Shown here one piece after another: positions 35,458 through 42,347 of a DNA stretch of 45,963 nucleotides. Each line of letters begins with the position of its first letter. The first letter of the stretch is position 1. Made by a program: the position numbers and the translations under genes. The notes beneath the pieces are model-generated. The model did not search any database, was not told where the DNA came from, and saw nothing but the letters and a program-made list of their open reading frames with translations. Source of the DNA: Armatimonadota bacterium (GTDB taxonomy: Bacteria > Armatimonadota > Fimbriimonadia > Fimbriimonadales > GBS-DC); the NCBI GenBank assembly GCA_037442385.1, contig JBBIQJ010000002.1, positions 1-45,963 on the forward strand. Reading direction: 5' to 3'.

Positions 35458-36018
35458 TTAGAAATCAAACAACTCTTTCACCTTGCACCGAAAGTCAGGT
35501 AGCAGGTCGCCTCCTGTGAGTTCCTCCTCTGCCGAGAGGGTGCGCACCTCAAACGGCGCGGTATACACATTCACGGTGCGCGTTTCTGGGAACAGCAGCC
35601 ATACCTGTTTGGCGCCCGACTCAAAATACTCCCCAATTTTGCGTAGCAGGTCGGCGACATCTTCGTTCGGGGAAACAATTTCCACGGCTAGATCAGGGGC
35701 GCCATGCTCAAAGCCTTTGGCGGGTTTGCCATCGGGGAGGCGCTCTTTGAGAGTGAAGGCGACATCGGGGCTTCGAATGTTGCCGTTCGCCATGCGAAAC
35801 CCTGCCTGCGAACCTGCTACATAGCCGCGCCCCTTTGCAGCAGGCACCATGCGAGCAATCAACTCAGCTCCAATCACATCGTGTTCATGTCCTGCAGGCA
35901 CTTCCTTGACCTCCCCGTCGACCAGTTCATATTTGCGCCCGTCGTCGGGCAGACGCAGAAACTGCTCCTCCGTAAGTCGGCGGGCTCGTCTGGATTTGTG
36001 CGCAACCGCTCTGGACAT
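35458..36018 (-). CDS. Uma2 family (DUF820) restriction-endonuclease-fold protein
   Basis: YELVDGEV...SPDVAF...APDLAVEIVSP...K...Y...G..QVWLL is the Uma2 D..(D/E)xK pattern. Confidence 0.8.
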   Translation of the reverse strand: MSRAVAHKSRRARRLTEEQFLRLPDDGRKYELVDGEVKEVPAGHEHDVIGAELIARMVPAAKGRGYVAGSQAGFRMANGNIRSPDVAFTLKERLPDGKPAKGFEHGAPDLAVEIVSPNEDVADLLRKIGEYFESGAKQVWLLFPETRTVNVYTAPFEVRTLSAEEELTGGDLLPDFRCKVKELFDF

Positions 36019-38270: not shown

Positions 38271-38275
38271 ACAGA

Positions 38276-38300
38276 GGGGCGGCAACCCACTTGCCGCCCC
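38276..38300. terminator. Bidirectional hairpin between convergent prkA and the 401-aa gene
   Basis: The stem is GGGGCGGCAA / TTGCCGCCCC (10 bp) with loop CCCAC. Confidence 0.65.
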
Positions 38301-38321
38301 AACTGTGTGCAATCTCCAGAT

Positions 38322-39527
38322 TCAGTGAGCTCTTTGGCAGGGGAAGGCATCTCCAACGGGTCCAATATTGGGTGGAATGGTGATCCCACCGCCGATGCCA
38401 GGAATAGTCTGCTCGAGACGGGTAACTGTCACCCAACAGACCCAGCGCTCGCACAGACGCACCTGCCCATTGACGCAGCAGAAAATATCCCTGATTTTGA
38501 TCAGGTCAAACACATAGACTTGACAGAAAATATCTACTCTCGTGTTCGTATTGTTAACAACGGTGATAGTGATACAACCTCCTATCTCGCCGACGATTTT
38601 AATGTCTCCCAGATCAACCCTTCCACCAGGCATTGGCAATCGAATGCCGAAGTTCGCAGCAAACTCCACTGCAGCACGACCACATAGGCGATAGGTTTTC
38701 GTACTCCCAACCTGGCTGTCAATCGAGCCACATCGCACAAGATTTCCGGTGCGCCTTCGGTTGACAACAATCCACTCGCCCTCGACTTGTTTGCGTCCGT
38801 TCACGAAGCCATCACAGTCTCTGGGGCGCCTCGGCATTGCTGAAGGGGGGATAAGAGAGGTTTTTGTTCCTGGGGGTACCCTTATCACTGCCTCAGCCCA
38901 CTTTGGCATTCCAGGTCGTTCCCTATCTGGCGCAGCCCCCTCGAAATCTCCATGCTCAAAGAGAATCCAGCCGAGATGCCCCTCAACGGGGAAGCCAACA
39001 GAGGCTATTGGGCGATTACTCTCGTCAACCATCGCAGGTAAGTCGCGTATGCTCATTGGGTCAATTACCAGATCGTCTTCGCTATCCACACCCATTTTTG
39101 TTGAGGCGAAATGGAGCGTACCCAAAAGACGCTCTTCGGAATCTGACTTGCGGGCATAAAACCAGAGATAGCCATGATTTGCGCCATCTTCATAAGTTGG
39201 CACTATAACCATAGACTGAGCAGAGCGCTCCAGTATCTTGCAGTTAGCAGCGACAATCACCAGCGTCTCACCTGTCTGGAGCCATTCTCGGAGATCAGGA
39301 GAAAACCGCACTGTGACAGCCCGTTCGGGTTCGAAGAGCAGGACGGGCAAACGTGCTTCCCCTGAAAATGGAATCTCTTCGCCGCCTAACCCCAAGCAGC
39401 AAAATGTTTTGACGCTCCATGAACCTGTTGCAGAAGCGAAAGCATTTGCCAGCATCTGGCTAGCAAACGCCAGCATAATCAACACGCCAGCCCGAATCGA
39501 CTTTTGCATCTGCCTCACTGTACGCAT
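38322..39527 (-). CDS. Hypothetical 401-aa secreted Cys-rich protein, no recognisable family
   Basis: It has a signal-like N-terminus (MQKSIRAGVLIMLAFASQMLANAFA). It is the only long ORF on either strand here, and its G+C is lower than the flanks (37-53% in spot counts). The C-terminal ~120 aa contain 8 Cys. Confidence 0.6.
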   Translation of the reverse strand: MRTVRQMQKSIRAGVLIMLAFASQMLANAFASATGSWSVKTFCCLGLGGEEIPFSGEARLPVLLFEPERAVTVRFSPDLREWLQTGETLVIVAANCKILERSAQSMVIVPTYEDGANHGYLWFYARKSDSEERLLGTLHFASTKMGVDSEDDLVIDPMSIRDLPAMVDESNRPIASVGFPVEGHLGWILFEHGDFEGAAPDRERPGMPKWAEAVIRVPPGTKTSLIPPSAMPRRPRDCDGFVNGRKQVEGEWIVVNRRRTGNLVRCGSIDSQVGSTKTYRLCGRAAVEFAANFGIRLPMPGGRVDLGDIKIVGEIGGCITITVVNNTNTRVDIFCQVYVFDLIKIRDIFCCVNGQVRLCERWVCWVTVTRLEQTIPGIGGGITIPPNIGPVGDAFPCQRAH

Positions 39528-39563
39528 CCGTGTTATCTGCCATAAAATCGTTTACACTTTCGT

Positions 39564-39677
39564 TTACAATCGTCGGGAAGCATTCAGTCGTTGCAGTATC
39601 GCGTCATAAAAGTCAACGAGGGCTTCTTGCGCCTCCTCGACTACCTCCAGAATTGTCAACGATTCGCGCTCGTCCAC
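39564..39677 (-). CDS. Possible 37-aa ORF (GTG start) or the 3' part of a frameshifted gene
   Basis: AGGAG lies 6 nt before the GTG. The product is (M)DERESLTILEVVEEAQEALVDFYDAILQRLNASRRL, and the frame is open further upstream without a start codon. Confidence 0.25.
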   Translation of the reverse strand: MDERESLTILEVVEEAQEALVDFYDAILQRLNASRRL

Positions 39678-39838
39678 TGGCTGCTCCTGTACGCACCGCG
39701 CAATATCCTCCAGTCGTAGAGTAGCAGCAACGGATCGCCCTGTATGACAGGGTAGGTAGGTTGCGCACGCAAATCCTGAAACATGTCCGCAACCTCTCTG
39801 CTATCGTACTCCAAGCGTCGCTTGTATTGATCTCGCAT
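39656..39838 (-). CDS. Small hypothetical ORF (60 aa) with strong expression signals
   Basis: GAGGAGG precedes the ATG at 39838, and a TTGACA-N18-TATACT promoter lies about 75 nt upstream. Confidence 0.45.
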   Translation of the reverse strand: MRDQYKRRLEYDSREVADMFQDLRAQPTYPVIQGDPLLLLYDWRILRGAYRSSQWTSANR

Positions 39839-39913
39839 GTTAGCCTCCTCTAATGCATTTGGTGGACGGACGGGGAGACCCCCGCCCTATCCACCCTCTC
39901 TGAGTGTAAATGG

Positions 39914-39943
39914 AGTATATCACATCGTTGACGGCTTTGTCAA
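39914..39943 (-). promoter_or_regulatory. Near-consensus sigma-70 promoter (TTGACA-N18-TATACT) with upstream phased T-tracts
   Basis: The minus strand reads CCCTTTTTTCGCCTTTTTTCGCGCGTACCCTTTGACAaagccgtcaacgatgtgaTATACT. Confidence 0.6.
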
Positions 39944-40243
39944 AGGGTACGCGCGAAAAAAGGCGAAAAAAGGGCAAATCGCATTCGAAAGGTTTACACT
40001 TCGGGCGTAAACGAATTTATGGCACAAAACACTCCGTCTGAGCTTTCTGTGGAGGGATCACAACTTACACTCTCCTTACTAACTTAACACCACAAACCGC
40101 CCTATCGTCACATCAAAGCTCTCTCCGCGTTCCACAAGCTTCACTGTACCCCGCGTCATCGGCTACACCTTGCCTTCTGTATTTCAGGGTTTACTCGCAA
40201 GCATCCAGCTCCTGCCCTTGTCTGGAGGTGAAGCAACGCCAGC

Positions 40244-40252
40244 GGGTATAAT
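40244..40252 (+). promoter_or_regulatory. -10 element GGGTATAAT for gyrB
   Basis: gggtataat lies 43 nt upstream of the ATG at 40296, with GGAGG in between. Confidence 0.45.
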
Positions 40253-40274
40253 CATGCTGAAACTCAATCAGTAG

Positions 40275-42347
<2,073 letters not shown>

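Follow-up and report, generated by a model that had tools for sequence, protein, structure and literature searches.

The stretch of DNA between prkA and gyrB in a Fimbriimonadales (Armatimonadota) lineage, which a preliminary description had read as one self-contained expression module, very probably consists of two unrelated parts: a resident gene for an orphan 401-aa protein and, just upstream of it, a 501-bp remnant of an IS481-like insertion sequence (IS). Throughout this report, the window denotes the whole stretch of 45,963 nucleotides that was analyzed. Everything from the promoter to the small ORFs of the supposed module lies inside the 501-bp insertion, and this insertion is absent from co-linear relatives. 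The coordinates of all features are collected in Table 1.

Table 1. Features of the prkA-gyrB interval and of related full-length elements; positions are those of the window unless another contig is named.
Feature	Position	Strand	Remarks
Hairpin with T-rich tail	38276-38300	minus	10-bp stem with 8 G-C pairs, then TCTGTTTATC
Resident orphan-family gene (ORF of the 401-aa protein)	38322-39527	minus	Between prkA and gyrB; signal-peptide-like N-terminus, predicted all-beta, Cys-rich
Gene-proximal target-duplication copy	39526-39530		Gene strand reads CGGAT, which differs from CGGAG by one substitution
IS remnant	39531-40031	minus	501-bp non-autonomous IS481-like internal-deletion derivative, TGT…ACA termini
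Gene-side terminal inverted repeat	39531-39556	minus	…TGTAAACGATTTTATGGCAGATAACA; second GTAAAC repeat before it
orfC remnant	39564-39716	minus	Last ~50 codons (RLEDIARCV…QRLNASRRL, then stop); contains the 37-aa GTG ORF 39677-39564
orfA' remnant (60-aa ORF)	39656-39838	minus	Codons 1 to ~44 homologous to the 90-99-aa orfA
RBS GAGGAGG	39850-39844	minus	Ahead of the 60-aa ORF
Leader stem-loop of the IS mRNA	39861-39895	minus	GGTGGA…TCCACC around CGGGGG-TCT-CCCCG
Sigma-70-type promoter of the IS	39914-39943	minus	TTGACA-N18-(TG)-TATACT, directed at the 401-aa gene
Two T6 tracts	39971-39966, 39961-39956	minus	10 nt apart, just 5' of the -35 hexamer
Promoter-side terminal inverted repeat	40006-40031	minus	TGTTTTGTGCCATAAATTCGTTTACG, then the GTGTAAAC subterminal repeat
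Distal target-duplication copy	40032-40036		CGGAG on the gene strand; same sequence as at empty sites, where it occurs once
Native gyrB/orphan-gene divergent intergenic region	40037-40295		Co-linear with L002
Full-length transposase ORFs	L074:1231-2577; L069:6272-7654		Pfam rve_3 2e-15, HTH_23 1e-9

Results

Ends, target duplication and empty sites of the element

The 501-bp element is bounded by 26-nt terminal inverted repeats that are 88% complementary, the core of which is expected to occur 0.03 times by chance. Its ends in the window, TGTTTTGTGCC…GGCAGATAACA (TGT…ACA), recur in L063, L064, L069 and L074; the promoter-side repeat is identical in L063 and L064 and shows two to three differences in the full-length copies L074 and L069. 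The element is flanked by a target duplication of 5 bp (CGGAG/CGGAT) whose two copies differ at one base; empty sites contain exactly one CGGAG. In contig L002, which is 96-97% identical to the window, gyrB, the 401-aa gene and prkA are co-linear save for a gap of ~506 bp in the pairwise alignment. The exact join of position 39525 to position 40032 was also found in assembled contigs of four other metagenomes, one of which (X3) comes from the same study and has a joint-spanning contig of 209 bp with zero mismatches to the window. The short (empty) allele was seen in L002, X3, X4, X7 and X10, and the filled site is present in runs X1 and X2.

Near-identical element sequence is confined to three runs of one study, with one insertion site for the 501-bp form. 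The depth of the element equals that of its flanks in the X1 contigs, and no second copy lies within the 46-kb window. A scan of genome contigs with the 18-nt repeat core returned 57 matches; one of them, in the Fimbriimonadales MAG L054, is a real related end, and the others have nothing in common with the element beyond ~25 nt. Taken together, these observations make us confident that the element inserted recently into the ribosome-binding site of the 401-aa gene, duplicating CGGAG, and it now separates the native intergenic region from that gene. The 501-bp form may have moved as a miniature element, or a full-length IS may have inserted and then been deleted in situ; the element, which lacks a transposase, was presumably mobilized in trans.

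Expression signals and ORF remnants inside the element

The T-tracts, the TTGACA-N18-TATACT promoter, the leader stem-loop, the GAGGAGG RBS and the small ORFs of the preliminary description are all present, at or near the places given there. The promoter agrees with the consensus at 11 of 12 positions, carries a TG ahead of the -10 hexamer and is the sole 11/12 site in the 2.7 kb scanned; it is kept in four related elements from other sources (L063, L064, L074 and L069). The 78-nt leader has a folding energy of -30.6 kcal/mol (z = -2.6 versus shuffles), and a strong leader stem-loop occurs in all five related elements, with differing sequences and with energies of -29.5 to -44.6 kcal/mol (z -1.6 to -4.8). 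Searching the region against Rfam gave only sub-threshold chance matches, the leader hairpin corresponding to no known RNA family.

Homologues of the 60-aa ORF form a family of 90-99-aa proteins (family profile, E down to 1e-48) that bear the motif …DLRxQPTYPVxxGDPLLLLYD and that we call orfA; the last ~16 codons of the 60-aa ORF are out-of-frame read-through. Over 55 nt, the orfC remnant matches the 3' end of the L069 IS at 87% of its nucleotides, and it aligns with the orfC tails of L074 and L069. When aligned to full-length copies, the window element shows a deletion junction right after the …LLLLYD of orfA, joined to the orfC tail, and, read in this way, an internal deletion has joined orfA, at codon ~44, to the end of orfC in a different reading frame. 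An alternative description of the small ORFs as one ~97-aa gene with a simple frameshift was dropped after the full-length IS copies had been aligned.

Because the small ORF consists of a shortened orfA that runs on, in the wrong frame, into an orfC tail, it is not the partner of the 401-aa protein that had been proposed. None of the relatives of the 401-aa gene is preceded by this ORF, and any upstream partner that exists is an ECF σ factor. The check suggested at the time, namely whether the two genes co-occur, speaks against the partnership as well: homologues of the small ORF are always found with a transposase and never with a homologue of the 401-aa protein.

Full-length relatives and assignment to a family

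In every context longer than 1.1 kb (seven of eight places), the orfA homologue overlaps a transposase of 448-460 aa with HTH and rve_3 domains, and wherever the contig reaches that far, the transposase is followed by a 67-79-aa ORF (orfC), the whole unit lying between the same inverted repeats. The full-length element of ~2.0 kb is composed of orfA, the HTH+rve transposase and orfC; the HTH and DDE (rve) transposase ORF of these relatives has been lost from the window copy by the internal deletion. The best NCBIfam match of the transposase is IS481 (E 4e-37 and 2e-40, model positions 2-284 of 284), at a score of 128-139 bits that lies under the NF033577 cut-off of 224, and the next-best family is IS3 with 79-82 bits. 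Since the transposase falls below the curated IS481 cut-off even though IS481 is its best family, we call the element IS481-like and regard it as a distant lineage; its nearest annotated plasmid relatives are IS481 transposases with ~26% identity.

L064 is a second, independent non-autonomous copy, 619 bp long, which has CTCAG on both sides and interrupts an FG-GAP/CARDB gene. Some other copies have non-identical flanks (CTCAG/CTGAG and CTCAG/CTAAG), and the flanking 5-mers suggest a CTNAG target.

Predicted consequences of the insertion for expression

No terminator-like site was found between the IS promoter and the 401-aa gene. With the promoter directed at it and nothing resembling a terminator in between, the 401-aa gene is probably co-transcribed from the IS promoter. 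In the empty allele, no promoter resembling the sigma-70 consensus was found upstream of the gene, and the initiation region, as seen in L002, reads GGAGG-N6-GTG. As in this empty-site allele, the GTG at 39518-39516 is probably where translation natively begins; the ATG at 39527 arose by substitution in the gene-proximal copy of the target duplication. This G→T change, by converting the restored Shine-Dalgarno sequence from GGAGG to GGATG, would weaken initiation at the native GTG and create an in-frame ATG. The locus of the 401-aa gene was absent from all RNA runs searched.

Composition, selection and surroundings of the 401-aa gene

The 401-aa gene is real and under purifying selection, with dN/dS values of 0.23 and 0.20 in two independent pairs. 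Its composition had been contrasted with that of prkA as 37-53% against 63% G+C; the lower G+C holds, but the contrast in total G+C was overstated, the values being 52.2% for the 401-aa ORF and 50.1% for the upstream element versus 59.3% for prkA (gyrB, 59.7%; window, 59.9%). At third codon positions, the contrast is large (GC3 of 51.5% versus 81% in prkA and 77% in gyrB). Homologues of the gene are also close to 50% G+C in hosts of 56-62%, so that the atypical composition is found in three different host backgrounds. This foreign composition suggests that the gene was acquired horizontally in an older event, with which the rarity and patchy distribution of its family are compatible; horizontal acquisition, as originally proposed, is in keeping with the evidence for this gene, but not as a single cassette.

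A synteny comparison had been recommended as a check on whether relatives have prkA directly next to gyrB. Around prkA, the gene neighbourhoods of three relatives with PrkA identities of 83-95% differ, and both gyrB and members of the family are missing from them; a clean site predating the acquisition of the 401-aa gene could not be demonstrated. At the other end of the gene, a hairpin lies 5 nt past the prkA stop codon, and the same hairpin is found in L002. It had been called bidirectional; the hairpin itself is there, but it is not clearly bidirectional because it qualifies as a terminator on the minus strand only. It is likely to be the intrinsic terminator of the 401-aa gene.

A rare family of putatively exported Cys-rich proteins

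The ORF and its signal-peptide-like N-terminus are as previously described, but not the count of eight C-terminal Cys: of the 13 Cys in the protein, 10 fall within residues 238-397. Exhaustive searches of 1.84 billion cluster representatives, standing for ~15 billion predicted proteins, yielded about seven other family members, and the family is very rare and patchily distributed. The homologues P0001-P0005, P0008 and P0009 and the fragment P0006 have a common architecture and the invariant Cys, which number six in the comparison of all eight family members; the C-terminal domain has 6-8 conserved Cys. P0007, a tail-fibre-like protein of 877 aa, was rejected as spurious, with only five short repeat matches, weak Pfam phage tail-collar matches and none of the family architecture.

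By hydropathy, the sole strongly hydrophobic 17-residue segment falls at residues ~10-31 and is followed by ANAFA/SA; inspection by eye together with hydropathy gives K9, R12, the hydrophobic stretch GVLIMLAFASQMLANAFA and then SA, and comparable N-termini are found in all homologues. In accordance with the preliminary description, no domain was recognizable in the large protein. Neither the 401-aa protein nor its distant relatives had a match in Pfam, NCBIfam, PHROGs or PADLOC. The profile and structure searches that had been recommended likewise gave no significant match: those against PDB sequences were at chance level only (E ≥ 0.9), and Foldseek returned nothing at E ≤ 0.001 from PDB (searched twice) and BFVD, with top matches at TM ~0.1. 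Two AF2 models of moderate confidence, built from 5 and 8 sequences (pLDDT 63 and 69.4; pTM 0.39-0.45), are all-beta, with two very long strands at 331-352 and 355-375. On the basis of these predictions, the protein looks secreted, probably by Sec-type export, and is predicted to have an all-beta, two-domain structure; we infer that its Cys form disulfides and that it is a periplasmic or surface envelope protein.

Association with ECF σ genes

ECF σ genes are located upstream of the family member in L001 and L068: P0004 follows an ECF-type σ gene so closely that the stop codon of the σ gene overlaps its own start codon, and P0009 is likewise preceded by an ECF-type σ gene. The L068 σ scores 55 bits against TIGR02937 (cut-off 42.9) and passes Pfam Sigma70_r2, and tblastn detected no mutual similarity between the σ proteins of L001 and L068. 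The σ gene is dispensable, as L067, which is 99% identical to L068, is without it. Neither the window nor L002 has an adjacent co-oriented ECF σ gene, the divergent neighbour being gyrB, and in L065 no long ORF on the gene strand is present in the 282 bp preceding the gene. Among the loci with visible upstream sequence, the association is limited to two, the upstream regions in L003, L004 and L066 being too short to judge. Because two distant relatives lie directly downstream of ECF σ genes, an ECF-controlled envelope or surface protein is the most likely ancestral logic, which we put forward tentatively.

Discussion

The strong and seemingly autonomous signals beside the orphan gene had been read as pointing to a cassette and are instead what remains of the front end of an IS. 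The small ORF in the window should be annotated as an IS fragment and not as a partner protein. The original proposal, in which the whole of 38271-39943 is a single horizontally acquired cassette that brings its promoter and leader along and encodes both a small partner protein and a secreted effector or toxin, could draw on the facts that both parts are lower in G+C than the neighbouring genes, that all parts are co-oriented and no terminator separates them and that the large protein is without a known domain. We now give it almost no credence, because co-linear relatives keep the large gene and are missing precisely the promoter/leader/small-ORF segment, because that segment bears inverted repeats and a target duplication, because small-ORF homologues keep company with transposases and not with the 401-aa family, and because no toxin family was matched by sequence or fold. 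A two-allele polymorphism in itself carries no polarity, and the short allele might in principle be the derived one, a 506-bp segment having been precisely excised or deleted, in which case the window would represent the ancestral state. This is scarcely more credible: the empty form occurs in several diverged lineages (~97-98% identity) and in X3 of the same study, whereas the filled form is limited to runs of one study; the 5-mer is present in two copies in the filled allele and in one in the empty allele, as insertion predicts; the GGAGG-N6-GTG initiation region is intact in the empty allele; and the segment is demonstrably part of a mobile IS.

For the resident gene, two further readings have to be weighed. 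The signal-peptide-like N-terminus and the all-beta model with two very long strands would suit a beta-pore-forming toxin of the aerolysin or ETX-MTX2 type, or another secreted toxin, and the weak Foldseek matches repeatedly include aerolysin-type proteins (Cry35Ab1, the lamprey immune protein and Dln1) as well as NetF, which is of the haemolysin type. All of these matches are nevertheless non-significant (E ≥ 0.07, probability ≤ 0.1, TM ≤ 0.13), Pfam, NCBIfam and PADLOC have no match, an immunity or partner gene is absent, and the putative hairpin is short and Cys-locked; moreover, the two relatives behind an ECF σ factor indicate envelope physiology, which argues against a toxin. We consider the toxin reading very improbable, and the effector or toxin role first proposed is unsupported. 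Somewhat less improbable, though still unlikely, is that the 401-aa protein is an anti-σ or signal-sensing partner of an ECF σ factor whose gene was lost or moved in this lineage. The ECF-type σ genes directly ahead of P0004 and P0009 would accord with such a role, as would a single N-terminal hydrophobic segment with a large extracytoplasmic part. However, all members have only ~10-14 residues ahead of the hydrophobic segment, which leaves no room for a cytoplasmic anti-σ domain, and no zf-HC2- or RskA-type Pfam match was obtained; in addition, the two σ proteins are not detectably alike, L067 does without the σ gene, and no σ gene adjoins the family member in the window or in L002.

We speculate, in a scenario that may well prove wrong as a whole, that the 401-aa protein represents a new, extremely rare family (about eight sequences) of disulfide-rich exported beta-proteins without detectable relatives in fold, ancestrally paired with a dedicated ECF σ factor and moving horizontally among thermophilic Armatimonadota-like bacteria, and that a recent IS insertion rewired the gene in this strain, taking it out of ECF σ control and placing it under a strong σ70-type promoter of the IS, with a subsequent point mutation in the duplicated Shine-Dalgarno sequence retuning its translation. 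The coexistence of filled and empty sites in one subsurface community provides a clean allele pair, which could serve for testing whether an IS has driven promoter capture in this thermophilic, uncultured lineage of Armatimonadota. Two entities encountered here are poorly described, namely a distant IS481-like lineage in which two accessory ORFs are conserved and the leader is structured, and a very small family of putatively exported Cys-rich proteins of no known fold; neither alters current concepts.

The element resembles the IS481 family in the single HTH+rve_3 transposase of its full-length relatives, in its TGT…ACA ends and in its 5-bp duplication, which is within the range of 2-15 bp for IS481-family target duplications (PMC10045372). 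It differs in that the lineage carries two further conserved small ORFs, namely orfA (90-99 aa), which overlaps the start of the transposase, and orfC (67-79 aa), in that its promoter is close to consensus and a stem-loop is conserved in its leader, and in that the window copy is without the transposase. With MITEs, the window element shares its shortness, the presence of both inverted repeats and a target duplication, and the absence of a transposase; unlike typical MITEs, which are featureless, it retains the IS promoter and ORF fragments, and a single insertion of the 501-bp form was found, with X1 depth equal to that of the flanks. The resident gene can be compared with ECF σ-linked envelope genes, since an ECF-type σ gene directly precedes two of the distant family members; this link is seen at two loci only, and the 401-aa protein differs in having no anti-σ domain and the window in having no σ gene. 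IS-borne promoters that activate or rewire adjacent genes are familiar from IS1, IS2, IS10 and, in Bordetella, IS481. In the window, the promoter is an internal transposase-operon promoter reading through the IS end instead of a hybrid or outward -35, and the activation is a predicted one; as in those systems, the element contains a strong promoter that is directed at the neighbouring gene, and no terminator is predicted between the two.

A polymorphic insertion between the 401-aa gene and gyrB

The preliminary description treated the interval between prkA and gyrB (38271-39943) as a single expression cassette, comprising a secreted Cys-rich protein and possibly a small partner. Reading both strands of this region recovered all the features that it had listed in the sequence, and the hairpin behind the 401-aa gene, which had been called bidirectional, is present but qualifies as a terminator in one orientation only.

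Features of the region between prkA and gyrB (window positions)
Feature	Position	Strand	Remarks
T-tracts	just upstream of promoter	minus	two T6, 10 nt apart
Promoter TTGACA-N18-TATACT	39943-39914	minus	11/12 consensus positions; TG upstream of the -10 hexamer
Leader stem-loop	39895-39861	minus	78-nt leader: -30.6 kcal/mol, z = -2.6
60-aa ORF	39838-39656	minus	preceded by RBS GAGGAGG
37-aa GTG ORF	39677-39564	minus	frame differs from 60-aa ORF
401-aa ORF	39527-38322	minus
G+C-rich 10-bp hairpin with T-rich tail	38300-38276		terminator criteria met on minus strand only

The protein most similar to the 401-aa product, P0001 (96% identity), is encoded on a 3-kb contig, L002, which shares the gene order gyrB, 401-aa gene, prkA with the window, and alignment of the two places approximately 506 extra bases of the window between the 401-aa gene and gyrB. 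This segment starts with TGT, finishes with ACA and ends in 26-nt inverted repeats that are 88% complementary; the repeat core occurs at two places only in the window, both at the segment ends, against a chance expectation of 0.03. On the gene strand, the element is flanked by CGGAG…CGGAT in the window, and a single CGGAG is found in L002. The filled site was recovered at 100% identity in two subsurface runs of the source study (X1 and X2), and the empty site, in which 39525 is joined straight to 40032, in contigs of X3, X4, X7 and X10; a 209-bp contig of X3, also from the source study, crosses the empty joint with 0 mismatches to the window. The 506 bp skipped at empty sites correspond to the 501-bp element and one 5-bp duplicate, and near-identical 501-bp copies were confined to three runs, all from the source study. 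Judged from sequence comparison, the window allele is the derived state, and the insertion is recent and still polymorphic. The region is thus not a self-contained module, because L002 and the empty-site metagenome contigs keep the 401-aa gene without the segment carrying the promoter, leader and small ORFs. A natural filled/empty polymorphism at the ribosome-binding site of a gene is, modestly, new.

Predicted effect on the 401-aa gene

In the empty allele, the start region reads GGAGG, six nucleotides, GTG, and a search of the sequence ahead of the 401-aa gene revealed no promoter resembling the σ70 consensus. Duplication on its own would restore GGAGG beside the gene, but the gene-proximal duplicate in the window reads GGATG, not GGAGG, and because of this the native SD would be weakened and an in-frame ATG is added at 39527. 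Another possible start is M7, with GAGG ahead, which would leave the hydrophobic N-terminal segment intact. Co-transcription of the 401-aa gene from the IS promoter is likely, since this promoter faces the gene and no terminator is predicted to intervene. No RNA run was found to contain the locus.

A rare family of apparently exported Cys-rich proteins

The 401-aa ORF is, by its substitution pattern, a real gene, because dN/dS was 0.23 for the window gene versus L002 and 0.20 for the homologous pair L003 and L004; the adjoining prkA segment has 0 non-synonymous changes. Its G+C content of 52.2% (GC3, 51.5%) and that of the upstream 501 bp (50.1%) are lower than those of prkA (59.3%; GC3, 81%), gyrB (59.7%; GC3, 77%) and the whole window (59.9%), and the orphan family stays at ~50% although its hosts are at 56-62%.

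Four homologues came from word-indexed searching of 5.8 billion proteins. Profile searching, exhaustive over 1.84 billion cluster representatives, brought in P0005, P0008, P0009 and one fragment; one further profile match was rejected as a spurious repeat protein. In all true members, a hydrophobic N-terminus is followed by a beta-rich N-terminal domain, then by a linker rich in Pro (…APDRERxLPKWAEAExxxPPG…) and finally by a C-terminal Cys domain. Of the 13 Cys in the 401-aa protein, 10 lie at residues 238-397; Cys 238, 282, 318, 350, 351 and 359 are invariant, and the domain carries the motif FCCxNGxxxxCExxxC. Searches of Pfam, NCBIfam, PHROGs, PADLOC and PDB sequences gave no match to the family, and the all-beta AF2 models, with moderate pLDDT values (63 and 69.4), gave no significant Foldseek match in the PDB and BFVD. 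The view of the gene as an orphan, apparently exported, Cys-rich and compositionally foreign was borne out, and the profile and structure searches returned no homologue of known function; the suggested toxin role found no support. This very rare family, with a fold not matched to any known one, is also modestly new.

PrkA places the window in the Fimbriimonadales (Armatimonadota), near "bacterium HR15", and an identical PrkA is encoded on a 3.04-Mb contig; the locus occurs in metagenome runs from subsurface, hot-spring, sludge and sediment samples. Other genes adjoin prkA in relatives whose PrkA is 83-95% identical, and because neither gyrB nor an orphan-family member is found beside it there, the 401-aa gene is lineage-restricted on synteny. 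This comparison of prkA neighbourhoods demonstrated no pre-acquisition site.

Two distant members, P0004 (contig L001) and P0009 (contig L068), are encoded directly downstream of ECF-type σ genes, and the 401-aa protein could not accommodate an anti-σ domain on the cytoplasmic side. Our best functional guess, a tentative one, is that it might be an exported protein of the envelope or surface with a link to ECF σ factors. Contigs L067 and L068 are 99% identical, but just upstream of P0009 a segment of 861 bp that contains the gene for a 199-aa ECF σ factor (L068:5501-6361) is replaced by 120 unrelated bp (L067:7836-7955); therefore, the region upstream of the orphan family is variable in a second lineage too. 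Near the P0004 locus lies a 1646-aa SufB/SufD-type gene with several intein and LAGLIDADG homing-endonuclease domains (L001:12409-17349). Genes for Uma2-family endonucleases occur at distances of a few kb at most from three family members (window 35458-36018; L001:8425-9360; L067:11023-12117), which is probably coincidence because such genes are very common in these genomes.

Other copies of the element

A second non-autonomous derivative, of 619 bp (L064:2091-2709), shares its ends, promoter and leader stem-loop with the window element, and is inserted in an FG-GAP/CARDB surface-protein gene with CTCAG at both flanks; its cargo differs, being an ORF of 83 aa that matches DUF7091 weakly (E 0.014). 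In a Fimbriimonadales MAG (L054), an element end lies at the edge of a contig. On the minus strand of L063 (402-1934), a copy of the IS left end and promoter precedes an intact orfA of 98 aa. Behind it come a truncated HTH protein of 131 aa and, where the rve domain is expected, an HUH rolling-circle Rep of 232 aa (Pfam REP_ORF2-G2P, 1.5e-6); this arrangement may reflect a rearrangement that involved a small RCR replicon or an ssDNA element. In L073 (2821-2881), the left inverted repeat of a full-length copy is seemingly split or duplicated by ~35 bp (TGTTCTGTGCCATAAATTC-AGTGTAATCTCAGGCGTCATCAGGTCCATAAATTCGTTTACA).

The end-flanking 5-mers are CTCAG, CTGAG or CTAAG in nearly all copies (L054, L063, L064, L069, L071-L075), which suggests CTNAG as the target preference; the window has CGGAG. 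Left and right 5-mers are unequal in some copies (CTCAG/CTGAG in L074), as would be expected after inter-copy recombination or if the ends reach into the palindrome. In the hot-spring runs X5 and X6, short contigs matching the orfA part (39714-39765 and 39798-39830) have ~100-125x depth, compared with ~41x for the host locus; relatives of the IS are therefore abundant or multi-copy in these metagenomes.

Identity of the element and comparison with IS481

Over its first ~44 codons, the 60-aa ORF shows homology to proteins of 90-99 aa (the orfA family) with the motif …DLRxQPTYPVxxGDPLLLLYD…. In all contexts exceeding 1.1 kb (seven of eight places), orfA overlaps the beginning of the transposase gene, whose 448-460-aa product contains HTH_23/HTH_32 and rve_3 domains; this gene is followed by a 67-79-aa ORF (orfC) wherever the contig reaches far enough. 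The full-length units (2014 bp at L074:751-2764; ~2060 bp in L069) share their terminal inverted repeats with the window element. Multiple alignment places the deletion junction directly after …LLLLYD of orfA, whose remaining part is fused out of frame to the final ~50 codons of orfC (RLEDIARCV…SRRL*). Because this junction joins orfA to the orfC tail, both small ORFs are IS gene fragments, and the proposed small partner protein falls away.

The promoter (TTGACA-N15-18-TATAAT or TATACT) and an ATTTACA motif are kept in all five related elements, and the T-tracts were found in the window copy alone among those compared. A strong, G+C-rich leader stem-loop lies between the promoter and the orfA RBS in L074, L069, L063, L064 and the window; its sequence diverges among members and its structure is kept. 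It gave no match in an Rfam search and may be a regulatory or stabilising element.

IS481 is the best family for the transposase (E 4e-37 and 2e-40, entire model covered), with IS3 second, and among annotated plasmid proteins its nearest relatives, ~26% identical, are transposases of the IS481 family. The element resembles IS481 and its relatives in this match and in its TGT…ACA ends and short duplications, both reported for that group (PMC10045372), but differs in a score of 128-139 bits, under the NCBIfam cut-off of 224, and in the accessory ORFs orfA and orfC. It represents, as a modest novelty, a distant IS481-like lineage with accessory ORFs.
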